Part shown: positions 24,055-51,416 of the stretch, piece after piece
Layout of the letters: each line of letters begins with the position of its first letter
Position numbering within the stretch: position 1 is the stretch's first letter
Virus record (IMG/VR): IMGVR_UViG_3300029705_000054
Coordinates: 65,687 to 129,686 of that record
Length of the DNA stretch: 64,000 nt
Direction: 5' to 3' (one strand)
Source of the DNA: a virus
Taxonomy: Duplodnaviria > Heunggongvirae > Uroviricota > Caudoviricetes
Program-made: the position numbers and the translations under genes
The notes under the pieces: model-generated
Seen by the model: the letters and a program-made list of their open reading frames with translations, nothing else
Told to the model about the DNA's origin: nothing
Database searches by the model: none

Positions 24055-24084
24055 AAGAGGAAGATATCTCAATATCTTCCTCTT
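24055..24084. terminator. bidirectional terminator at the convergence of the two gene arms
   Basis: AAGAGGAAGATAT-CTCA-ATATCTTCCTCTT. Confidence 0.75.
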
Positions 24085-24389
24085 CTTATTCGTTCAAACA
24101 TTATATCAGTTAAATCAATAATTTCTTCACCAAAAACCGAAATTATTTCCGCTATAAGTTCTTCCTCATCATGACCCAAAGTCATATCATATGCAAACAT
24201 TGCCGCATGCACTAACTCATGGCAAAGAACTTTCTCAAACTCTTCACCATAAAGTTCGTTACTAATATAGATAGTTTTAGTTGCATCATTACACGCCCCA
24301 ATAGCAAAGTTACCGTCAGGCATTAAAAGCGCAACGTCGTATGGCATAACTAAAACAATCCACCATTGTTCTCCATTAATGGTAAACAT
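24069..24389 (-). CDS. small HExxH zinc metallopeptidase-like protein
   Basis: GAC...TIYI...VLCHELVHAAMF...EE. Confidence 0.7.
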   Translation of the reverse strand: MFTINGEQWWIVLVMPYDVALLMPDGNFAIGACNDATKTIYISNELYGEEFEKVLCHELVHAAMFAYDMTLGHDEEELIAEIISVFGEEIIDLTDIMFERIRRGRY

Positions 24390-25108
24390 TATTTAATTTT
24401 AGTAGCGAGCATGCTTATCTTTTGTTGTAGAAGTTGTTTTTCTTCAGGAGATGCGTCTTGAATCATCTCTGTGAGATCACTGGAAAGTTCTTGCATATAA
24501 GATTCAAGCTCTTTCATTTGATGAGCTTTATCTTTCATACCTTTACCGTCCATATACATCTTGCGGCGTTCGCCGCTTCTTCCTTCTTTAGGGTCACGAC
24601 TCATAGCTTCCATATATCCTCGATTACCGCCGCGTTCGTACATTGAATACATACCATCGTTATACATTGGATAATGTTCACCTGGAATCATTCCCTCATG
24701 GTAGCCACGAGTGCCGCCTCCGCGCGCATCATTACCACCTGAGGAGTTCGAACTATTGCCATTAGACGAGCTAGAATAGCCACCACTATTTTCGCCACTT
24801 TGCGCATACATTGGTGAATAATATCTTTCTCTATTGCGAGGGTCATACATCTCAACAGGATAAGGCATATGATACATAGGAGTTGTACGAGAATAATACA
24901 TCATTCCGTGCTTGCCTTTACCTTCTTTATCTTCGCCTTCTTCCTCCATAGCCTCAGTAATTGTACAATAATAGATAGCTTCACTAAGATCCTTAATCAT
25001 ATCAATGGCGGCGCCAAGCTCTTGAGCGTCGACCTTCTCCATGTTGCCATAGACCTGGCCTTGAACACAACCGACGAGCGCCTCTTTCATCTATTTTAAT
25101 TTTTCCAT
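24389..25108 (-). CDS. hypothetical protein, helical termini and Tyr/Met/Gly/Ser-rich middle (1 TAG)
   Basis: Starts MEKLK*MKEAL (TAG 25091-25093); TAATG coupling to the peptidase gene. Confidence 0.7.
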
Positions 25109-25109
25109 A

Positions 25110-25529
25110 TTACGCCACCCTTTCTATAATTAAGTTTGCATTTTGAACATCAATAGCTTGCGTACTAGTATTTCTTACGCTAACTGTGATGCAGCAATTA
25201 GCAGGAACGTCAATATATACTGCGCTAGCTACATTAGCGAATTCTTCTACTGCCGCTGGAGTTTGGATCATTGTGGTTGTAGCCACAGCCTCTCCGTTAA
25301 TAGCAATCGCAAGAGAGATCGCTTCAACAGTTCCGTCAGCGGGAATGGCTATATTCCCGCTGAAGAACGCCTTAAATCTCGCACGACATTGGTTAGTAAG
25401 ACCACGAAGAGTTACTAAACCACTACCATCACGATGCATAATGGAGCAGCTGCCGCAAACCGCAGTGTCGGTAAACTGAACATTTTGATTAAGCTCTACC
25501 GTCTGCAGAGCATTTGCTGTAATTTCCAT
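25110..25529 (-). CDS. BclA C-terminal (C1q/TNF-like) fold protein, putative
   Basis: Beta-rich 139 aa (SGLVTL...F.GNIAIP...SLAIAING...ITVSVRN...NANLIIER) resembles the BclA_C pattern; pattern inference only. Confidence 0.5.
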   Translation of the reverse strand: MEITANALQTVELNQNVQFTDTAVCGSCSIMHRDGSGLVTLRGLTNQCRARFKAFFSGNIAIPADGTVEAISLAIAINGEAVATTTMIQTPAAVEEFANVASAVYIDVPANCCITVSVRNTSTQAIDVQNANLIIERVA

Positions 25530-25557
25530 TCTTATCTAAGCCTCCGTTTAAAATTAA

Positions 25558-27535
25558 TTAGAAGCTTACGCAATTACCGCAACCGCAGTTACGAGTTACT
25601 TGATAATCGTAGCAGCAGTTGGGGTTAGGAACTACATACGCAGGAACGGGACATGGAGTCGAAAGTCTGCGAATAAGTTCTGCAGTCTGAGCTTCTTGAT
25701 TTGCAGTGATAAATGCATTTTGATTTGCTTGTGATGCCGCGAATTTAAGAGACTGATTCTCTGCAGTAAGAGAAGCGATCTTATCTTGCGTCATGAAATC
25801 GATGATTCTATCACCAAGTTTGTCAATAGCTTGAAGCGTATTGCAGTTATAAGTTTGAGCGGCAAAACGATTTTCCATGTTAGCCTTCTCAATGTCGCAG
25901 CAGCAAGCAGCTAATTGTGAAGCAAGAGCGTTAGTATTTATAACGCCTTGAGTTTTTACATCAGCAATTGCGGCGCGAGTGTCACCATTATGTTATCATA
26001 CAAGCTCTTTATCTTGTATTTCTTATAGTTTCCTATAAGATCAGACTATATCTTCATCCTATCTAAATAGGAGTTCGGTACTCGTGTCGAGATTATTGGT
26101 ATCCATCCTCACTCGTTAGTCGTTGAACCTTCCAAGGTACTGTTATTGGAATTCCCTTGGCTCGGCTGCTGATTAGCATATTCACATTTATATTGTCCTT
26201 TATATAAAATCCCATTTTTTAACGCGCTATTGAAACAAGAACCATTTGGCGCACCAATAGCTTTCGCTGCGGCTCCTTTGCTCTCATACCATATTCCATT
26301 TACAATAATAGGAACTTTTGTACTTAAACTAGGAGTGAATGGTTTGGGTCCTTCATCCTCATAATAACATAATTCTCCTTGAGGATTGCCTCCTTTTTTA
26401 CACCATCCTACGACAGTTGTCTCTGCTACTCCATATGCTCTTGCTGCATCAACTAGACCATCATATCGGGTTTTGTTTATTATAATAGGTCGCTTATGTT
26501 TATCTCCAGCTTTTTTTGCAAATTCTGGATTTTTCATAGGATTATTCTTAGACATTCTTTCTCTCTATTCTTGAGCTTTCATTGGGTTATATTTAGACCA
26601 ATATTGTTTCATATCCTCTGTCCATACAAAAGAGTAGCCTCCAGTTCCAGGTTTAGCTAAACTACAATGACATTCACCTTTTTCTTTGTAGTAATAAGTT
26701 AACTCTGCTTCATATTTAAAAGCTTGTTCTTCTGTGAGCTGATCTTTAACAATTCTTGAATCTACATTATAATCCATACAATACTATTTGAATAATTGAT
26801 TTCTGCGCGCCATCTCTCGATATCGTTTCCCGCAGCCTTTGCCTACATAAAAGACATAATTGGTATCAACATTATACCATTCATATACATAAAACTTATT
26901 TTCTTCCATTTTTAATCTCCTTTATTATTCTATATTGAATTATGAACTTCATTGTTCAATATATATTTAAAATTGAGTTTAATGGATGAATAATTTTTGT
27001 CCTTAATTTTTTATTTTGTGAAATTAGCCTTCCAGCAATTCTCCGAATTGTTTTCTAATAGTTACCTATTAGGCTGCCAATGACTTTAGCAGCATTCTGC
27101 GATCTGGTTACCAAGGGCTGTAAATCCAGCTTGGTTTTGATATCCAAGAGTACAGATAGCGTTATCTACTCCGTGGAATCCTGTTGTGATAGCATTACTT
27201 AATGCGTATGTGCTATCAGCTAAACCATAAGTTTGGTTATCAAGTTTAGAAATTAAAGTTTGCTGATCGACTGCAGCGCGAACATCATCTTTAGTTGCAC
27301 AAGCTGATCCACCAAAGTTAGCTCCATAGAAGTAAGGATTTAAAATGTAACCTGCGCCTCCTTCAGAGCCTCCGTTGTTGCCCCAACCATTTCTTCCCCA
27401 TCCAGTGAAAAGAAACAATAAGATGATCCACCAACCGTTCTCACCAAAGCCGTCACCGAAACCTCCATTTCCTCTGTTGCCGCCTGTTACTGCGGCGATG
27501 TCGGATAAAGAATATCCATTTGAAGTGTTGAACAT
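25558..27535 (-). CDS. Gly/Asn/Cys-rich protein split by a group I intron (exons 27535-27088 and 25985-25558; 291 aa spliced)
   Basis: Splicing gives TGC TGC T|GT GAC = ECCCDTRAAI and restores frame (876 nt); hydrophobic WWIILLFLF, CCC motifs, Cys-rich C-terminus. Confidence 0.85.
26109..26909 (-). CDS. intron-encoded GIY-YIG homing endonuclease (2 TAG)
   Basis: FYVYEWY...FYVGKG..KR; TAG at 26784-86 and 26565-67; NPMK repeats and NUMOD1-like tail; ORF runs through the Q and R core elements. Confidence 0.85.
26960..27002 (-). promoter_or_regulatory. bipartite promoter-like motif inside the intron (spacing variant)
   Basis: GGACAA...AATTTTAAATATATA upstream of the intron endonuclease. Confidence 0.45.
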
Positions 27536-27568
27536 ATTATGTCCTCCTTTATAAAAATATATTTAGAT

Positions 27569-27817
27569 TCAGAGTCCAAAATACTGCTTTTTGAACCTAC
27601 TGAACTCTTTATCAAAATCAATTCCTTGTTCTTTGGCAAGATTACGTGCGAATTTTTCAATATCTGCTGTACGATTATCTTTTGCCATTGACAAGAGATT
27701 ACCCATAATAGGATTTTGTGACGCTTCTCCTTCAAGAATATCAATCATTAATTGTTCTGGATTTTTGCCCTAACGCATTTGCATTAATAAATATGCGGGG
27801 TCTACATTGTAAGCCAT
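27569..27817 (-). CDS. small helical hypothetical protein (1 TAG; not in ORF track)
   Basis: RBS AAGGAGG; MAYNVDPAYLLMQMR*GKNPEQ...NPIMGNLL...IEKFARNL; ends TGA. Confidence 0.7.
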
Positions 27818-27828
27818 ATTTTACCTCC

Positions 27829-28314
27829 TTATAGATTAAATGGCGCATTTACTTGCGCTTTTACATTGCGCGCCGGTCCAGGTTCTTGTGATTTTTCCTA
27901 AACCAAACTTGCCTTAAAACTTGCCAAAATTTCATCAAGCTCATCCTTAGTAACATACACCGGCGCCGGCGCAGCTTCACTTGGAGTGCTTAATTCAAAT
28001 ACATTAAAAGCGGCAGTGCCATCCATGTTAATCTGTTTGGTATAAATCTTCTTATTTCCTAAGTCTGGGAAAACATAGAGCGATCCATCTAAATCGATTT
28101 GACTAGCTCTTGCTTCATCAATCGAGACTACTGGACGACCTTTAATGTAATTGCCTTGTGACATCATTATAGGCGCGGTATATTGCTGCTATGGAGCAAC
28201 GCTAGGCGCACTCTAATCTGTCTGTTGAGTCTGCATCATTCTCTGATACTGTGGTTGCATCCCATATCCATACATATAGGGTGTCTGTTGAGTTAGATTA
28301 TTATACATATTCAT
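27829..28314 (-). CDS. hypothetical protein with Gln/Met/Tyr-rich N-terminus (3 TAG)
   Basis: QTQQTD*SAPSVAP*QQY...IKGRPVVSIDEARASQIDLDGS...IYTKQINMDG; RBS AAAGGAG; ends TAA. Confidence 0.7.
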
Positions 28315-28349
28315 TCGAGTTTATTTCTCCTTTCACTCTTGTTCAAATT

Positions 28350-28389
28350 TATATTAAAATTTACTTAATCGCTTTAATAAATTTTGATA
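28350..28389 (-). promoter_or_regulatory. bipartite phage promoter-like motif
   Basis: TATCAA-N28-AATATA heading the six-gene module. Confidence 0.55.
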
Positions 28390-32128: not shown

Positions 32129-32635
32129 TTATTCCTATTCATGAATATCTGATATAGCAACTACGGTTACTGTGGGAAGGGCGCGAAGCTCGTCCATAAG
32201 CTTCTTAGCCCAACTGTTGCCGCCTTCTTCTTTATAAATAGCATATCTTTCTTCAAGTAAATCTAAAGTGTAGTTATCAATACATCCTAATCTAATCCAC
32301 TTTTCATGCTATTCTTTTATCCATGTTTTGATTGCTAATCTATCAGATTTACGCAAACGAGTTAACTCTTTACTTTGCGCTTCATTAATTTTTTTCATTT
32401 CAATTAAGTTATCTTCTAATAACTTAATTCTGTCTTCATGCTTCACGAGACGCGCCTCTTTTTGCTCAGTTTCCGCTTCTATCTTTTTACCTTTTTGGAT
32501 ATTTTCTTCTTTAAACTTCTCTCTTGTAGACCATATTTTTTTACACCAAGAGATAAAATTAACAATGGCTGGAATCGCAATTAATAAAATAATAATTACA
32601 GTACCAGCACCAAATGTTCCAATTAATTCAGCCAT
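32129..32635 (-). CDS. holin-like membrane protein (2 TAG)
   Basis: N-terminal TM segment and coiled coil; after TAG 32309: ERYAIYKEEGGNSWAKKLMDELRALP; RBS AAAGGAGG. Confidence 0.5.
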
Positions 32636-41987: not shown

Positions 41988-44900
41988 TTATTTAACTCGA
42001 GAATTCTTACCTGTATACTACAATGCTAAATTAACCAAGTCTTCAAAAGCTTCTTTAATTTCGTCCTTGTCAGTAGCATTCGGGAACTCCGCATTAATAT
42101 TAACAATCTATTCAATAGTCGAACTATTAAGCGCTTCCCATGCCGCTTGAGAATGCGTAAAACCAAAATTGTAATTCGCCATCTAATCAACCATCGAAAG
42201 ATTTAAAGTGCGGAGAATATCAAGTGCATCAAGGAAATTCGAAGAGTCTTGTTTATTGAGAACTATTTCTTTCTCATGAAGCATCGCAAGTCGGCCCTCG
42301 GCGCCCCAGTCTCCTGTGTAACCACCAGTATCAAACTTAGATAATCGTCTATAATTATTATAAAGTTCTGTAAAATTGAGAACCTCTTCAGCATTATCTA
42401 AATATACTCCACTTCTATCATTTGAGTTTTGGTTTTGCGTTATGTTTTTAGATAAATCTCCACTTTGATTGAGAGCTGCCCATGATGAATAATTCTTATT
42501 AAACATTTCATTATACTATTTTAATCTAGTAGCAGTCTAATAAGAGCCTATTCTTTCAATTAACTACTAGGTATTTTTATCCATTAAACCAGTGACAGGT
42601 AAACCAGCTCTTTCTTGAATCTTTGCCACCATGTCTCTAAGAGCGCCCGTATATGTTGTTAAATCCTCGTAAAACAAACCATGACCCATCTCAGTTAAAG
42701 TACGCGCCAAATCTTTTATATTCTATTCATTGTCAATAAAATCAAGATGATCGGAACCTGCATCATTAATTCCACTGGATTTTTCCCATTCTGGATCTTT
42801 CTTCATTGCCTCCCAAGTTTGAGCGTCTAATTTACCAGTAGGAGCTAATCCCATTCGGAGCTAATACTCTTTAATCGCTTCTTCGGTACCTGAGTCCAAT
42901 TCTCCAGTTATTGTTAAGCTAGTGTCTCCAGGTTTTGCACCACCAGAAGTCGATACTGTATCTGTAACTGTAAATCCTTTATTATTAAGAAAATATTGAG
43001 CATCTTCAATATCACTTTTACTAAGACTAAGATTGGTATCAGGAGATCCACCGCCCTAAAGTCCTAATCCATTATTAATAGCCCCTTGAACCGTCTGAGC
43101 GATTGTACCAGTGTATTCTGAAATTGCACCTTCTAACCCTTTTATACTAGATAGTAGACTTTCAGTTTTTTCTTCTCCGTCTCCTAATATACCCTTACGT
43201 ATTGCCTCTAATTTTTCAATAACCTATTCCTATTTTGATAAAATACCATCTGTGTCAGATAATAAATTATCCGAAATACCTTTAAAAGCCATATTTATAT
43301 TATTTAGTTGTTCATCGGCTTCTTTTTTAGATGCAAAAATTTCAGCTATAATCTCTTGCGACTTATCTGCAAAAGTACTTTCTGCAGTGGTCATACTTTC
43401 GGCCCAATCTGACTATAACCAGGTAAAAATTTCACTTAACTCATAATCTAAACCTAAATTAATCTATGCATCTTCTGCACTCCAGCCAAGCTTATCGAGT
43501 AACTCTTTTGTTCGAAGCTAACTATCTTTAAATCGCGCTAACTATTTATCTGTATACTCTTGAGCATCTTCTTCCTTATCCCATTCGCCACTAGTAATCT
43601 TTTCAGAGACAGTCTATTGCCAATCTTCCCAAAGAGAAGCTACATTGTCCAAAGTCTTTTTCAACTCTTCCTCGTCTAAGTTAACTAGTTCCTATTGCGC
43701 CTTATTTAAAGCTTCTTGCTATTCTAAAATTTTACTCTAATCAGCAACATATTGATAACTATAAGTACCATCTGCTCCGCGCATTAGGCGCATTTGAGTT
43801 TTGTTTTCTTGAGCTTCTTGAAGAGCAATTTCTGCTTGTAATAAGTCTAAACGCTTTTGCGCCCTATCTAAATCATATTGAGTTAATTTATCCTTTTTGC
43901 GCAAAGCCTTTAATTCAAGATTTCTTAAATCATTTAGTTTTTGTTGCGCATTAACAGATAATTTAGTAGACTATAATGCCTTTTCAAAAGCTATTTCAAT
44001 AGCATCAATACCATAGCCAGCATCAATCTAATCCAGATAATCATCACTCATATCTTTGAACCATTCCCACTCTTCTTTAAGAGATGCAACAGTATTACCA
44101 AATACCTCTTCTTCAAAGTTTGCAATGGTTACTTTGACATCATTTGCAAATTGTTCAGTAATAAGAGTAGCTTTATTAACCAATTCACTTAAATAATTAG
44201 AGCGAGCAGTTAAATATCTTTCAGCCTATTCTGGGCTCAATTCTTCGCTATCTTTTACTAATTCATATTCTTTAAGCTAAGTCTCATAATCTTCTCTACG
44301 CTTTTCTGTTATTTTCGTTTGATTGCTTAAAGCAGATTTATAATAACCATCTAAATATTTAAATGCTTTATCTCCATAAAGTAATTCATTTAAAGAAACC
44401 TATTGTTCCAATATCTCTGAAATATCTTCAAGGTATCCAATATAAGTTTCATATGCACTAGATACATCATCTAAGTACGAATTAATATGGTCATAAACTG
44501 CGGCGCGCGCCTCTTCAAGGGACAGACCTTTTTCCATTAACTGGTTTAAAAGTTCCTATTTTTTCTCTTCAGCACCTTTTAACGTATAAATGTCTGTACG
44601 AAGTTTTAAGGTATCTTCATCATAAAACTTTTTGGCACTGTCATCCATAGCATCATAAGTAGCCTAAGTAATTTCAGCAGGTAGCTATGAAAATTTCTCA
44701 AAAGTCTCCTCTGAAATTATTAATCCCTCATTGAGGCCCTTAATTGCTTCGTTAATATTGTTAATATCATCTGCATAAGTATTAATATCTCCTAATAAAA
44801 CTTCTCCTATTTTTACATAATCATCATCATAAATAGTTTTAATATAATCATTATAAGCTCTTTCAAAATCTGTTTTATCAAAAGCTAATTCTAGTTTTAT

Positions 44901-47900
44901 TTCTAATACTTCAAGATTTTTATCAAATGAATTATAAATACTATCAAGCCATGCATTATAGTTTTCTTCATAATTAGACTATGATTTTTCTATCGCTTCA
45001 AATAAATTATTCCAACTCTCTTTTAAAATAGGATTATTTATAATTTCTGATACATTTTCAGCATAATATGTTTCTAACGCTACTAAACTACTCGCATCAA
45101 AAGTTCCATCTGCAGCAAACATTTTTCTAAACAAAGCTGCGTCAACTTTAATGCCAGTTGCTTGCATATTTGTAGCAACATTTTGTAAATTAGCTTCAAT
45201 AATTGTCTTATCAAGCTGAACATCACGTCCTAATGACTACCGAGTTAAATTAATATTTTTTGACAATAAAGATGACTATTTTATTAAATTATCAAGCTAT
45301 TCACTTTTACCTAAAGACTCATAAGCTTTCTATAAATATTCAAGTTCATTAGTATTATCAGTAATTAAATGCGATAAATCTTTATGTCCTAAAATTAGCT
45401 GTTTTAAAGCTTCTTCCTGAGATGAAAAATTCTTTTTAAAAATATTAAAACTATCTAAATTTAATTCATTTTCTTGTCCCTATAACGAATTAATGACAGT
45501 ACGAAGTTCAATAGCTTCAATAGCCTATTTTTTCTAGTCTTCTGTAACAGTATAAATATCTCCCTTTACAAAATCTTTAATTGCTGTTCCATTAATTAAT
45601 GCATTTTCAAGCTCTGTGACAGAATCATAAGTAGTAAGCAGCTGATGCATTACACCATCATACTTTCTTTGTTCTTCATTTATAGTCGTGTTACTTACTT
45701 CACTTTCAATTTTACCTTGCAGCTCATTATATTCTTTTTCATAAGTGTCATAATCTTTATTTTCAATTAAATCTCCGGCTGCTACTTTTTTCTTTATTAA
45801 TATATCTATATAATCTGAAAATAAAGTATTAAACCCTTGTAAGGCATTTTGTTCCTTTACTCGGCTCTACCCCCAATGGCCAAAACCTCCAGAAAGTAAA
45901 AATTTATCCTTATTATAATATAAATCTGATGCTGAAGCATTATTTATTTTTTCCCAAGCTGCATTTATAATTTGTGTCTAATTTTTAGACCATGTTAGAT
46001 CTCCAGTTTTATTTCCTGTAAATGCAGCAACAATTGTATCAAAAGAAGCCTCTCCACTTGTCAAATTAGGTATATTTGAAACTGTTATTGTGTTTGGAAT
46101 ATTTAAATTTGATACATCAATAAACTTTGATACTCTATCAAGGTTATTTAGGTCATCTCTTGCTTTATTTGCTTCAATATTTTTCTATGTATAATTTTGT
46201 AAATTACCTTGACTAATATTTAAACTATTAAAAAACTTTTCTCTCTCGTCTTTTTTACCTTGCTAGTATAATTCATTAGCATTACCAATTAATAATGCTG
46301 TACCGTCAGCTAAAACGGTAAAATACTCTTTTTGTTTATCTGATAACTTATCATATTCATCCTATGCAATCTTACTCTCTTTTGCAACTTTTTGCATAAT
46401 AGATTGAAAATTAGCATAACTATCTTGAAGCTCTTCAAGAGTAATGGCCTGGCCCCACAAAGCACGCCATTGTGCCGTAAAATCATCAAAAACATCATTA
46501 GGAACTGTAACATTTAAATCTGTAAAAATTCTCTTAATTTCATTTTCAACATTATCAATAGAAGACCAATCTATTTCCTATATTGCTACGATAACATCAT
46601 CTGATGCTTCACCCATAGAAGTAAATACGGCAGCAAATTTATTAGCTGATTCTGCGCCATAGCGCTCCCATAATTCAGTAAAATATCCACTAAATGCAGC
46701 CCACTGCTCAGGACTTAATAAATCAGTTGTAATTGAGTTTTCTAATGTAGTAAAAGCAGCTTGCATATGAATAGGCATATCTAAAGTTACTTTATCCCAT
46801 GAGGCGTTAGCTGCCGTCACAGCAGCCTCATGAACACTCAATAAATCATCTGCAGATTTACCAGTTGCTTCACTTAATTTAGTTAATTCTTCGGCGGTTA
46901 ATGTAACTGATGTTAATTCTTTTAAGGCAGCCTTATTTAACTTTTCATAATTTGCATTACCAGATCTTAATAATGATACAGCAGATTTTGCAGTTTCATC
47001 TTGAAATTTATTTACAATTGGCGCCAATGCCATTGTCGTAATGCCTTTAGTCGATTTGGCTAAATCTGAAGCCATATCTGAAGCTAAAGCCGCATATATC
47101 TAAGTCATCGATATATCTTGTTCATTGCCTTCCGCATCGATATACTAAAATCTATTAGAACCTTTAGTGCCTACAAAATTACTCTCATCTAACCCTAATG
47201 TTTTTAAATAATCTATTCCTGCTTTTTTGTCTGCTTGATCAAAACCAGCATATTGAGATTTAACCTATTCTAATGAGGCCTAGTATTCTGTATCAGCCTT
47301 TTCTCCTGCTGCATAATACTCACCTAAAGAATAGCCTTCTCCTAATATAGATTTACCAAGCTCAATATATTTATCCTATTTTCCTGCTTCATTTGCACGA
47401 TAAGCTTCAGCTAAAGCCTTAGTCTCTGCAGTATTATCAACCAATGCTCTTTCAGTATCCGTTAACTCATTCGTTGTTTTACCTAAAACCTTTGCTAATG
47501 TTTCATAAGAATTAAAAACAGCTGTGTTACCAGCGGTATAGGCATCCATAGCTTTGCGATAAGATTCATCAGATTCTAAGTTTTGAGCTTTAGTATCTTC
47601 ATTTGCATCCGTAATCGCTGTAACAATTAAGCCGCCAACTCCACCAATAGCTGCGCCGATAACCATACCTAACGGTCCAAAAATTGCGCCAATACCAGCT
47701 CCTGCTGTGGCGCCAATGGCACCTGCTCCCGCTGCTAAATCTGCACCTGCTTGACCTCCAAAACTAGAACCTTCTACATATTCTTTACGAGCATACTCAT
47801 ATTCCTTGCGATCGGCAGCCATATCTGTAAGTAAGGTACGAGATGTAGCACGTTGTAGTTCTTCATACTATTTCTGCTATATTAGCTCTAAGCCTTCTGG

Positions 47901-50900
47901 ATCAATAGATAATTCTCCAGTAATAGGATCGCGCTCCATATATGATGCTAATTCAGGATATTTAGTTAATAAATCTAAGACTTGATTATTAATATCTGTT
48001 AAAGCCTTATTCCATTCAACCGTTCCTTCAGTTAAATCTTCTAAAGCAGTTTTAGCATTTTCTAGATTTGAAATAGAAGACTATAAATTATCCCATTCTT
48101 GTTGTGTGGCTTGTAATTGTGCCTATTGAGCTTTTGCAGCTTCTGTTGCTTGCTCAAAAGCTTTTTGCTCTTTATTCTAAACAGCAATGCCGATTGCTGC
48201 AGTTCCTGTAATAATCGCGGCCACTGCTGCAAATGCTGCAATATAAGGCGCCACCGCTCCAATAGCTTGTCCAATACCAGCAGCGCCACCTTTTGCTGCG
48301 CCTGCCTTGGCTCCTGCGCCACCTGCTTTCCATCCTTTAACGCCTTTTAAATCAGTGCCTTTCCAGCCTTCTTTGAATCCACTACCAAAATCTTTAAATT
48401 TATTTTTCCCACTATCAAAAATATCTTTCGTTGTATCTTTAAAAGAAGGATTATCAGTATTATTAGCAATTTTTTTAGCAGCAGCATTTTTTAAAATTGC
48501 TATAGTTTCATTATCTAATGCTTCACCGTTTAAAATATGATTATTAATTTCTTCGCGTAGTTCATCATTTATTTCATCCCCGGCTAAATCTACTAAACAT
48601 TTGGCTGCCCACAGTTTAGTTTCTGCATTAGCTTCTTTATCTTTTAATGTTGTTAAAATTTGTGTTAAAGCAATTTCTTGAGCAGTCTAAATATTTTTTT
48701 CTGCAAGTTTAGCATTATGGGTACTATATAATTTAATTAGACCTGTAATCAATGGACTTAATAATGATATTGTAGTAACAGTATTCTATAATGTCTATAA
48801 CAGTTTTTCTCCAACAGTTAAATCTTCATTTTTCCAAATAGAACCTAAATTAGACAATATTGTCAACGCAGAAATTGCCATACTAATATTAGATGTTAAT
48901 TGAATAAATGAATTAATTTGCTTTTCAAGGTTAGCTTTACGCAATGCCATTTCAGCAGCCACACCAAACTAATCCATAGTAGATTTTGCCTCAACCCCCG
49001 CTGCGCCAAGCTCACGTAAAGATTGCTACATCTTTTTAGCTTCTGTATTGCCCTTGCCCATTGCGCGTTTAGTTAAACGCTCAATTTCAGACACGGCTGT
49101 CTATATTTGATCAAACTATTCTTGAGTAATTTTTGTATCTTTATTAAATCCTTTTAATACTGACGCATATTTATTAAAATGAGTTAAGTCCTATCCAGAA
49201 AGTAATCCAGACTATGAAATTTTATTAACATCATTTAACGTATGCTGAAGTTCGTCATTAAACTTTTTAACCGCAGGGCTTCCTTCTTGCTTAAATTTAT
49301 CCCATGATGTATTGTTAATAATTTTTGTTAAATTCTATGCACGTTTTATAGTTTCGTTATATGCAGCCTAAACATTCTCTAACTCAAAATATAATCTCTT
49401 ATAAGAATTTTCAGCAGAAGCATCCATATATTCAACACTTGAATTTTCCATTCTTATAAAATCTTCATTTGAAAATGGATTTTCACGAGCATATTCAGAT
49501 AAACGATTTATATAAAGCTATGCAGACTCTTCTGTGACAGAGGATTTACTTCCAGCAGGAGGCATATTAAAGCCACGCTATAAAATTTTTGTATACTAAT
49601 CTCCTATTGTAGTAGGATCATAAGCTTCTATAGATTTCTCGTATTCATTAGCTGCATTTGCAAAAGCATTAATAGTATCTGTTAAATTATTAAAAGTTTC
49701 ATTTGTAATAATACCCTATTGCTTTAATAATACTAAATTTTCTCTTAAAGCGCTAATTTTTTCATCATAATCAGAAGTCAAAGTATCCCCATTTAAACGA
49801 ATTTCTTTAATATTCTCTAATAATCCACGCAGCGATTGAGCAGACTGCTATGCATTTTGAATGTTAGTAACAAATGTAGCCATGCCAGATGCTAAACTAC
49901 CAGAAAATAATTTAGTCATTACTGGTAAAATAGCCATTAATAAAGTACCGCCGCCCCCTATTGATTCAATAGCATTACCAAAAAATGTAACAAAATCAGT
50001 TAAAATATCAATAAGATTATTAGTACTTTTTGAATCAAACAAAGCATCATATACACGCTCACCTGCCGCGCTTAATTGTTCTAAATGAGCTTCAACAGAA
50101 TCTAAATATTTTTCTTGTTGTTCTTGTAAAAATCCGGTTGCAGTAGCAGAATCTCGTACAGACTTCTCATACATACTCCAGTTTTCAAATAACGCTAAAA
50201 GATTATTATACTGACGAGTACCAGCCATTGTCTATGCCAATGAAATCTATTGTTCACGCGACAATGTATTCCATTTACTACCAATTTCCTCAACAACGCT
50301 ACCCATATCGCGTAGTTTATTATTCGCATCTAAAACATCAAAGCCCAATTGCGACATTTGTTTTGTGTATTCTCCAAGAGTAGCTTCTGCATCTAAGCCC
50401 GCTTCAATATCACTAATACGAGCAAAAATGGTTTTAAATGCTGTACCAACAGACTCAGGCGCCTGGCGCGTAACGGAAATAACAGTTGCTAACATTGCAT
50501 TTAACTAATCAATATTAACTCCCATATTGCTAGCCGCAGAAGCAACTTTAGACATACCAGTAGAGAGCTCTTCTAAGTCGGCTGCGGTTGTTGCTGCTAC
50601 AACTGCAATTTTATCGATATAAGCTTCAGCTTCTTGCGCCTATACCTTATAACCATTCCAAACCGCGGTTAATTGTTCAGAAACCATTTCTGTGCTTTGT
50701 TTCGTAACATTTGCAACTTTCAGCGTTGTTTCTGTTCTAGCTCTTACCTCTTCTTCAGATAAACCTTGTTGGTAATATATTAAAGCAGCATTGGCATAAT
50801 CTTTAGTACTTTTACCTAATTCCCTAGCCGCTTTATTTGCTTGACGCGCAAATTTCTCCATTGACTCTGCGCTTTTATCAGTAACAAGCATAATATTGTT

Positions 50901-51416
50901 TAATGATTTATCTAGCTATTTAGTATAATTCCATGCCTATTGAACAGAAGAAGTGATCGTCTATAAAGCTGAAGATGCAATAGACCATTTAATAGTATTC
51001 ATCAATGTAGTGCCCATAGAGCGCAATAAATTATGTGTCTCTTGAAGCGGTAATTTAGTTGATGAAATTGCTGTTGCTAAATTTCTAAATGCAGTTGTAC
51101 CTTCGGCACCCGCAGATGCAAATTTATTTTTTATATCCTAAATAGAAGCACCATTTTCTATTAATTTTTGTTTAAAAATATCAATGTTATGCGTGCCTAA
51201 CGTAGGATTAAAACTAGCTTCAAGTGCATTCTATACTTTCTTAGCCTCTTGTTGAATAATAGATAATTCTTTTTTAGCCTCAGCCAAATTTTTAATATTA
51301 GTTAAGTCCGCTGGTTTCATATTCTATAAATTAGATAAACTTGTTTTTAACTAATTTAAACCAGACTAATCTACATTAAAACCAACCTAGAAATTAATTC
51401 TTTCCTAATTAGCCAT
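41988..51416 (-). CDS. tape measure protein (~3142 aa, dozens of TAG) with a PG-binding_1-like domain near the C-terminus
   Basis: Seven track ORFs are all in frame with ATG 51416 and TAA 41988; TP901-type motifs KTIFARI and AGTRQYNNLLAL; C-terminal FDTGGYTG...LHEKEIVLN. Confidence 0.85.

Follow-up and report, generated by a model that had tools for sequence, protein, structure and literature searches.

A portable, late-oriented gene cassette for a cysteine-rich protein and a protein of predicted BclA-like fold in tailed phages of gut anaerobes

Background

Why does a phage carry a tightly spaced row of six small genes that encode, among others, a cysteine-rich protein, a protein with the predicted fold of a spore-surface protein head and a peptidase-like protein, and where would their products act? 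This question is raised by a locus on the minus strand, from 28314 down to 24069, of a 64,000-nucleotide stretch of DNA (here called the window), which represents bases 65687-129686 of the complete 135,189-bp genome, with terminal repeats, of a tailed phage (IMG/VR record IMGVR_UViG_3300029705_000054). In a first-pass annotation the six co-oriented genes, here named g1 to g6, had been read as a spore-coat or exosporium-like system which remodels the spore surface of the host or builds a disulfide-cross-linked shell, a reading to which we give next to no credence for reasons discussed below.

Our analysis showed that these genes are one copy of an accessory cassette, mobile, insulated and late-oriented, which is very common among the tailed phages that infect gut anaerobes. 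That the cassette is accessory is concluded from its own terminators, from its differing positions among phage lineages and from natural deletion variants. New in this work are the finding of alleles of g3 that lack its intron, the recognition of a five-gene core with alternative peptidase-like partners, a survey of lysin genes in whole carrier genomes and the deletion variants themselves.

Results

Distribution and genomic position of the cassette

A total of 169 loci were gathered from IMG/VR and from genome bins (metagenome-assembled genomes, MAGs), and their open reading frames (ORFs) were labelled by iterative profile search. The gene order g1-g2-g3-g4-g5 is conserved in these loci, down to 30–45% protein identity. 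The genes g1, g3, g4 and g5 are each present in 150–167 of the 169 loci (g1 in 150, g5-type genes in 164), and g2-type genes were found in about 146 by using two seeds. The near-universal core of the cassette is g1 to g5, and it is the sixth, peptidase-like gene that varies. Synteny, which the first-pass annotation had proposed to survey across gut Firmicute phages and prophages, holds for the core in these loci, while the flanking genes differ among lineages. By word-indexed searches of public data, at least 7993 protein clusters (90% identity) related to g3 and at least 7984 related to g4 were found, none of them with a Pfam domain or a name, and full-text searches found no published paper on the cassette.

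The surroundings of the core fall into several layouts. In the large phages the order is g1 to g6, in part preceded by a holin gene, followed by a convergent early operon. Siphophages of about 45 kb show the order portal, minor capsid protein 2, a 127-amino-acid (aa) protein (phrog_3754), a 101-aa hydrophobic protein, g1 to g5, scaffold and major capsid protein; the 127-, 101- and 109-aa genes are variable flanking members in this small-phage type, from which g6 is absent. In the Butyrivibrio phage Ceridwen and in Dulem virus 33 it comes after the lysin and before lysogeny genes, and in the Clostridium perfringens phage CPD1 it is placed between lysis and replication genes. The crAss-like phage cr116_1 has a clear g3 homolog after a holin and a carboxypeptidase gene, which keeps the hydrophobic segment, the CCC cluster, an AASQ..AQ motif and the PxPAY..NPYCNC tail. 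The cassette or its g3 core is also found in a Bacteroides uniformis phage.

Natural deletion variants were found among 69 close relatives of one phage of about 45 kb. Whereas 66 of these keep the whole cassette, three IMG/VR loci (L201, L223 and L236) have lost g1–g3, g2–g4 or g1–g4, and all three keep g5 and the flanking head genes. This is weak evidence that the deleted genes are dispensable for making particles. Most of the cassette-bearing MAG bins are Clostridia; MAG taxonomy is, however, too prone to mis-binning to define hosts, the labels including Methanobrevibacter, Akkermansia and Alistipes.

Layout, boundaries and genetic code

Early genes occupy the plus strand of the window up to about 24050, and late genes the minus strand between 24069 and a point beyond 64000. 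Translation table 11 breaks the late genes into fragments, while frames of 3142 aa (82 TAG) and 1654 aa (32 TAG) are recovered when TAG is read as Gln; this reading was used in all gene calls. One of the 19 tRNA genes of the phage, at genome positions 48794-48868 and outside the window, has the anticodon CUA and is likely the suppressor behind the recoding of the late genes. The features of the cassette are:

28522-28498 and 28443-28423, minus strand: upstream boundary, two intrinsic-terminator-like hairpins with 11-bp and 8-bp stems followed by T runs
28340..28361, minus strand: AATTTTAA-N7-TTGAACA, a promoter-like motif located about 25 nt before the ribosome-binding site of g1
27829..28314, minus strand: g1, 161 aa, three in-frame TAG; phrog_21718
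27569..27817, minus strand: g2, 82 aa, one TAG; Met/Gln/Asn-rich, presumed helical
27088..27535, minus strand: g3 exon 1, codons 1-149 plus 1 nt, ending ...AECC
25986..27087, minus strand: group I intron in g3, 1102 nt
26109..26909, minus strand: GIY-YIG homing endonuclease gene within the intron, 266 aa, two in-frame TAG
25558..25985, minus strand: g3 exon 2, 2 nt plus 141 codons and stop
25110..25529, minus strand: g4, 139 aa, stand-alone beta-sandwich; phrog_20016
24389..25108, minus strand: g5, 239 aa, one TAG; low-complexity middle
24069..24389, minus strand: g6, 106 aa, HExxH; its start overlaps the g5 stop
24055..24084: downstream boundary, bidirectional terminator hairpin with a 13-bp stem which separates g6 from the convergent early operon

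All six genes are thus present with the compositions that the first-pass annotation had described, including a Cys-rich protein, namely g3 with its 15 cysteines. The gaps between them are, from g1 to g6, 11, 33, 28, 1 and -1 nt. The upstream hairpins are placed after a 738-aa tail gene, and the region contains 11 terminator-like sites compared to 3.0 +/- 1.7 in shuffled sequences. The claim of a compact, terminator-bounded operon is borne out by these tight gaps and by the hairpins on both sides, although the 1102-nt intron makes the region less compact.

The cassette had also been thought to share a promoter-like motif with the virion genes, which was not supported. The 22-nt pattern AATTTTAA-N7-TTGAACA occurs exactly at just two sites in the window, upstream of g1 and upstream of the intron endonuclease (26974-26953), and with up to two mismatches it gives five matches in total, a number reached by one of 100 shuffles. 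A looser, AATTTTAATATA-type motif is found at g1 and at one other late gene, as was the case in 25 of 100 shuffles. The exact pair may represent a shared promoter or regulatory site. Of the arguments for late expression, a motif shared with virion genes is thus not supported. The cassette is co-oriented with the late genes, and three of its genes have in-frame TAG codons, namely g1 (three), g2 (one) and g5 (one).

A group I intron splits g3

In the window the reading frame of g3 is interrupted. Two ORFs, one at 27535-27086 and one at 25878-25558, match one and the same family, phrog_16490, at positions 5–139 and 162–278 (of 286), and an endonuclease gene and an intron core lie between them, from which it is concluded that g3 is one split gene. 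The core is represented by a match to Rfam RF00028 at 26218-26022, over the full length of the model (45.8 bits, E 6e-10), which is below the gathering score of 50. In P1, the exon sequence GCUGCU pairs with GGCAGC with a U.G pair at the 5' splice site, and exon 1 ends ...GAATGCTGCU at 27088; in P10, GUCAU pairs with GUGAC at the start of exon 2, and the last base of the intron is the G at 25986. The resulting junction, AECC joined to CDTRAA, parallels QQCCCDTREA in the Dulem virus 33 protein, which is unsplit, and the joined exon product is collinear with unsplit homologs, including the 290-aa protein of MT838220.

Alleles of related phages that lack the intron were found in DNA contigs of other faecal metagenomes. 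One of them joins exactly at 27088, and in a second one 27097 is joined to 25983 with 11 letters replaced, which equals the length of the predicted spliced sequence. All of these sequence features predict that g3 is expressed here only once the group I intron has been spliced out. As the exon junction falls within the first CCC cluster, this cluster is present only after splicing.

The endonuclease gene within the intron belongs to the homing endonucleases of phrog_314 (E 9e-8), and its translation shows a GIY...YVG motif. The 3' 70 nt of the intron are 74–90% identical to unannotated stretches of Bacillus, Staphylococcus and Clostridium phages. The gene that hosts the intron has no relation to DNA metabolism. 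Other phages, too, often have homing endonuclease genes within the cassette or close to it, and in several unrelated phages such genes or other inserts lie inside it, namely in L008 (4161-4784), L001 (7512-8306), L002 (5413-5964) and, between g3 and g4, in L045 and L048; the cassette is apparently a hot spot of homing elements.

The spliced product is a protein of 291 aa with CCC at 148-150 and 177-179 and a CC...CGCGNC tail. The hydrophobic segment, the two CCC clusters and the tail described in the first-pass annotation are hence found in one protein after splicing, though not in one open frame. Exon 1 encodes a Gly/Asn-rich N-terminus, the hydrophobic stretch WWIILLFLF and a first helical region, and exon 2 finishes the first CCC and encodes the second one, a long helix, the PxPAY motif and the Cys-rich tail. 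An AlphaFold2 (AF2) model of an unsplit homolog shows a short hydrophobic helix (32–42), two long helices (75–141 and 158–258) and a disordered tail. In 25 diverse g3 sequences the WW of the hydrophobic segment and a CCC are invariant and the PxPA of the tail is nearly invariant. The N-terminus YSLSDIAAVTGG was considered as a double-glycine leader and rejected, the GG not being conserved among the homologs.

The g3 exons match no Pfam or NCBIfam family, those of the Cys-rich spore morphogenetic proteins (ExsY/CotY/CotZ, CdeC) included, and phrog_16490, their sole family, is functionally unannotated. A profile search against the PDB gave nothing significant; the best matches were the HR1 heptad repeats of coronaviruses (E 0.4–0.8), a resemblance which probably explains the label "spike protein" or "glycoprotein" on crAss-like g3 homologs.

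g4 has a predicted TNF/C1q/BclA-type fold

An AF2 model built from 20 homologs shows g4 as an all-beta sandwich (predicted local distance difference test, pLDDT, 86.5; predicted template modelling score, pTM, 0.81). When the model was compared to the PDB with Foldseek, F-BclA, BclA and ExsFA/BxpB came first (template modelling score, TM, 0.64–0.77), followed by ligands of the TNF family and by the knobs of some phage fibres or spikes. In detail, the BclA and F-BclA heads 9h38, 3twi and 1wck gave TM values of 0.64–0.74 with E values of 6e-6 to 1e-4, and the ExsFA/BxpB entries 7r5i, 8d02, 7r1m and 9h3d were within the top 20 matches with TM values of 0.65–0.77. Among viral models the best matches were stand-alone proteins of 135–145 aa from uncultured sipho-, myo- and podoviruses, and next came the ends of collagen-like fibres from giant viruses, together with fibritin whiskers. 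The model thus confirms the suggestion that g4 resembles the C1q/TNF-type C-terminal domain of BclA, and its fold is predicted to be of the TNF/C1q/BclA C-terminal type. At the sequence level g4 matches no Pfam or NCBIfam family, with no match to PF18573 at E<=1, and a profile of the 20 homologs retrieved none of the BclA chains of the PDB at E<=10.

The remaining genes of the cassette

The N-terminus of g1 is disordered and rich in Gln, Met and Tyr (Q13, M8 and Y6 within the first 55 residues), and the protein further has a small conserved domain and a C-terminal helix. In g5, conserved N- and C-terminal helices surround a low-complexity middle rich in Gly, Tyr, Ser, Met and Arg. Profile searches against the PDB gave nothing significant for g1 and g5, and g5 has neither a family nor a PDB relative; the parts of both that are readable under table 11 found only unnamed viral clusters in a protein atlas search. 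Informative relatives of g1, g2 and g5 were not found in Pfam, PHROG, the atlas or PDB profile searches.

The sixth gene, g6, contains HELVH at 57-61, and H57, E58, H61, E76 and E77 are invariant in 13 homologs. It matches the SprT-like family PF10263 with 25.6 bits, which equals the cut-off of 25.6, Peptidase_M78 (PF06114) with 19.5 bits (cut-off 22) and phrog_1233 (E 1e-12); its best PDB profile match, MJ1213, is not significant (E 0.16). This motif pattern points to a minimal, peptidase-like HExxH zincin.

The 127-aa phrog_3754 protein, which precedes the cassette in the small phages (e.g. L041 5363-5743) and has homologs in 90 loci, shows a GDC...GH pattern, which suggests a small hydrolase of the papain-like kind, and may serve as an alternative processing enzyme where g6 is absent.

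Discussion

Where, then, would the products of the cassette act? The reading we lean towards, with a confidence somewhat short of even, is a hydrophobically anchored, Cys-locked helical stalk with a trimeric head which is made late and acts at the cell envelope. In this proposal g3 would form an oligomeric, probably trimeric, helical stalk, which its one hydrophobic segment, flanked by Gly, would hold in the membrane or envelope and which would be locked by the invariant CCC cluster and the Cys-rich C-terminal tail. The g4 protein, which is expected to trimerise, would be the head that docks on this stalk. It has been shown that the clefts of the ExsF trimer bind a Pro-rich leader peptide [PMC12357932], and by analogy to ExsF/BxpB a candidate docking site is provided by the Pro-rich PxPAY tail of g3, which is nearly invariant. 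The prion-like, Gln-rich g1, the Met-rich helical g2 and the Tyr/Gly/Arg-rich g5 may serve as assembly or matrix partners, and the peptidase would cut or process one of the cassette proteins. At the envelope of the infected cell the late-made complex might, for example, mask receptors, exclude other phages or mediate adhesion, rather than take part in sporulation. The complex as a whole, its anchoring, Cys locking and PxPAY docking and the envelope role are suggested by the architecture of the proteins together with the analogies to ExsF/BclA and to fibre tips.

Several points weigh against this proposal. The binding of g3 to g4, the trimeric state of either protein and the membrane location of g3 are predictions. 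The AF2 model of g3, a monomer, is of low confidence with a mean pLDDT of 52. Positive charges beside its hydrophobic segment are nearly absent (means of 0.86 and 0.87 Lys plus Arg per side), so that the charges favour neither topology of g3, and the segment may not span a membrane. The TNF/BclA fold was matched in virion fibre tips and in cell or spore surface proteins alike, hence the fold of g4 gives no site of action. When the g4 profile was compared by hhalign to the proteins at the g4 position of crAss-like cr116_1 and of C. perfringens CPD1, no similarity was found. Finally, the cassette sits inside the head-gene block of the siphophages of about 45 kb, which fits a virion part at least as well.

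According to such a virion reading, g3 and g4 would build a non-essential fibre or whisker that decorates the capsid or the neck, assisted by g1, g2 and g5, with the hydrophobic segment buried in the particle or used for assembly. We do not consider this likely, but it stays live because of the head-module position in that one lineage, where the cassette lies between portal/minor capsid protein 2 and scaffold/major capsid protein in 66 of the 69 close relatives. It is also in keeping with the co-orientation of the cassette with late genes everywhere and with the occurrence of the g4 fold at the distal ends of giant-virus collagen-like proteins, in fibritin neck whiskers, in a cyanophage short tail fibre and in the phi812 spike knob. 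A fixed structural neighbour is, however, lacking: the cassette is found after tail genes or holin, after lysins, beside replication genes and in crAss-like phages, and thus spans very different genome types and capsid gene sets. Furthermore it is fenced by its own terminators, the Gly-flanked WWIILLFLF would be unusual in a capsid fibre, and no member of the cassette carries a structural annotation in PHROG. A role in lysis, which we hold to be quite improbable, would make g3 a single-pass holin or lysis regulator like T of phage T4, modulated by g4 and g2, with g6 helping to breach the wall; in the phage studied here the cassette might then replace an absent endolysin. Such a role could be seen in the holin gene (phrog_13712, E 9e-35) that lies directly upstream of g1, with no adjacent lysin, in about 25 loci of the large-phage type, and in the position after a lysin or holin in Ceridwen, Dulem virus 33 and crAss-like cr116_1. 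Moreover, the complete 135-kb genome gave no match to ten common cell-wall hydrolase families (Amidase_2, Amidase_3, GH25, CHAP, NlpC/P60, Glucosaminidase, M23, Hydrolase_2, SLT and M15_4), nor did Pfam give one in the late proteins scanned. Yet in 21 of the 24 carrier genomes with a completeness of 90% or more, Amidase_2, GH25, Glucosaminidase, NlpC/P60 or CHAP domains are encoded far from the cassette, so that it is not a general endolysin replacement, and this idea was largely rejected. In the phages of about 45 kb a CHAP lysin lies some 25 kb away and g6 is absent, a homolog of the upstream holin was not found in the 135-kb genome, and the PG_binding_1 domains of its tape-measure protein mean that wall-active domains of another family may exist elsewhere in it.

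In detail, these are two PG_binding_1 domains near residues 2800-2871 of the 3142-aa tape-measure protein (41988-51416, 82 TAG), and the pair may flank a wall-degrading domain of an unassigned family. A 168-aa late protein (32129-32635) with an N-terminal hydrophobic segment belongs to phrog_4257, as does a 143-aa gene convergent to the cassette of relatives (e.g. L026 9316-9744); it is possibly holin-like.

It could also be that no joint machine exists and that the cassette is a row of independent small accessory genes (morons) which travel together by linkage. Three of the six proteins are largely of low complexity, the interaction of g3 with g4 or of any other pair is only inferred, and the flanking members vary, with g6 in one type and the 127-, 101- and 109-aa genes in the other. 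The conservation of the order g1 to g5 across phages which are otherwise wholly different and the abutting or overlapping start and stop codons nevertheless make this highly improbable. As for the spore surface, there are several resemblances: the best structural matches of g4 are exosporium proteins, g3 is rich in cysteines, the low-complexity composition of g1 and g5 is coat-like, Clostridia provide most of the cassette-bearing MAG bins and C. perfringens phages have a version of the cassette. At the sequence level, however, no match was found to BclA_C, to the exosporium leader (TIGR03720, NCBIfam at E<=1), to CotY/ExsY or to another sporulation family. A collagen-like stalk is absent as well, the six proteins containing no run of four or more Gly-X-Y (GXY) triplets. 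The phage is a 135-kb one with terminal repeats, and no integrase was found in the annotated parts of its genome, no search having been aimed at it. The first-pass annotation had itself named occurrence mainly in phages of non-sporulating hosts as evidence that would speak against a spore system. Butyrivibrio fibrisolvens, the host of Ceridwen, is not known to sporulate, and together with the crAss-like and Bacteroides uniformis phages Ceridwen accounts for a part of the carriers, while the C. perfringens phages carry the cassette too. A spore-specific role is unlikely since phages of non-sporulating hosts carry the cassette or its g3 core.

The stalk and head proposed for the cell envelope can be extended to a phage-made, self-assembling "nap", which thousands of gut phages would use and in which anchored, Cys-locked stalks with TNF/BclA-like heads would stand in a prion-like and Tyr/Gly/Arg-rich matrix, similar to the hairs of the exosporium and independent of sporulation. 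In this wider form we think the proposal unlikely; if it were true, the nap would coat infected cells, debris or virions and alter adsorption, exclusion or persistence in the gut.

Both core genes, g3 and g4, are represented by at least about 8000 clusters each, for which no name, Pfam domain or paper was found. The cassette crosses TAG-recoded phages of 135 kb, siphophages of 45 kb and crAss-like phages, and because it crosses such different lineages its function in the gut is probably a general and portable one. Knowing this function would annotate a sizeable part of the dark matter of gut phages and would reveal a role of BclA/TNF-type heads outside spores. Cultured carriers exist, including Butyrivibrio phage Ceridwen, C. 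perfringens phages such as CPD1 and Bacteroides phage C3_41T2LP.

Comparison with known systems

The g6 protein, with its HExxH, its invariant downstream Glu residues and its length of about 106 aa, recalls the minigluzincins (projannalysin MJ1213, 4qhf), SprT-like proteins and ImmA/IrrE (M78). Its likeness to these zincins is marginal, and a repressor-like partner is absent.

The holin T of phage T4 has a single N-terminal hydrophobic segment and a large C-terminal domain with cysteines, is made late and has the small antiholins RI and RIII as partners. Likewise, g3 has one hydrophobic segment near its N-terminus and a large Cys-containing C-terminal part, and the holin or lysin adjoining the cassette in several lineages recalls the T/RI/RIII system. 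A sequence or fold relation between g3 and T is, however, not known, and most carriers have their own holin and lysin elsewhere.

Viral fibre tips, i.e. T4-type fibritin whiskers, the C1q heads of giant viruses, the short tail fibre of cyanophage A-1(L) and the phi812 spike knob, belong to the same fold class and combine a trimeric rod with a head at its end. In contrast to these, rod and head are separate genes in the cassette, the rod has a membrane-like hydrophobic segment and Cys clusters, and the location of the cassette is independent of tail or head genes.

With the C-terminal domains of BclA and F-BclA (PF18573), which are found in the exosporium nap and the F-ENA tip fibrillum, g4 shares the TNF/C1q jelly-roll and a similar length (139 versus 135–141 aa), at 11–17% identity and without a match to PF18573. 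The BclA head is the end of a collagen-like protein, whereas g4 is a stand-alone gene. Unlike BclA, the cassette has neither GXY repeats nor an exosporium leader, and it is encoded by phages, including those of non-sporulating hosts.

The ExsFA/BxpB trimer (7r5i, 8d02, 9h3d) has the same fold as g4 and is likewise a stand-alone protein, of about 140–170 aa, which anchors BclA and F-Anchor via their Pro-rich N-terminal leaders [PMC12357932, PMC10470788]. There is no sequence similarity between g4 and ExsFA/BxpB; the partner g3 is an alpha-helical Cys-rich rod with a hydrophobic anchor instead of a collagen, and its Pro-rich motif is C-terminal instead of N-terminal. As in the ExsFA/BxpB system, however, g4 neighbours a fibre-like partner with a conserved Pro-rich peptide, the PxPAY tail of g3, and this analogy suggests a similar mode of docking between g4 and g3.

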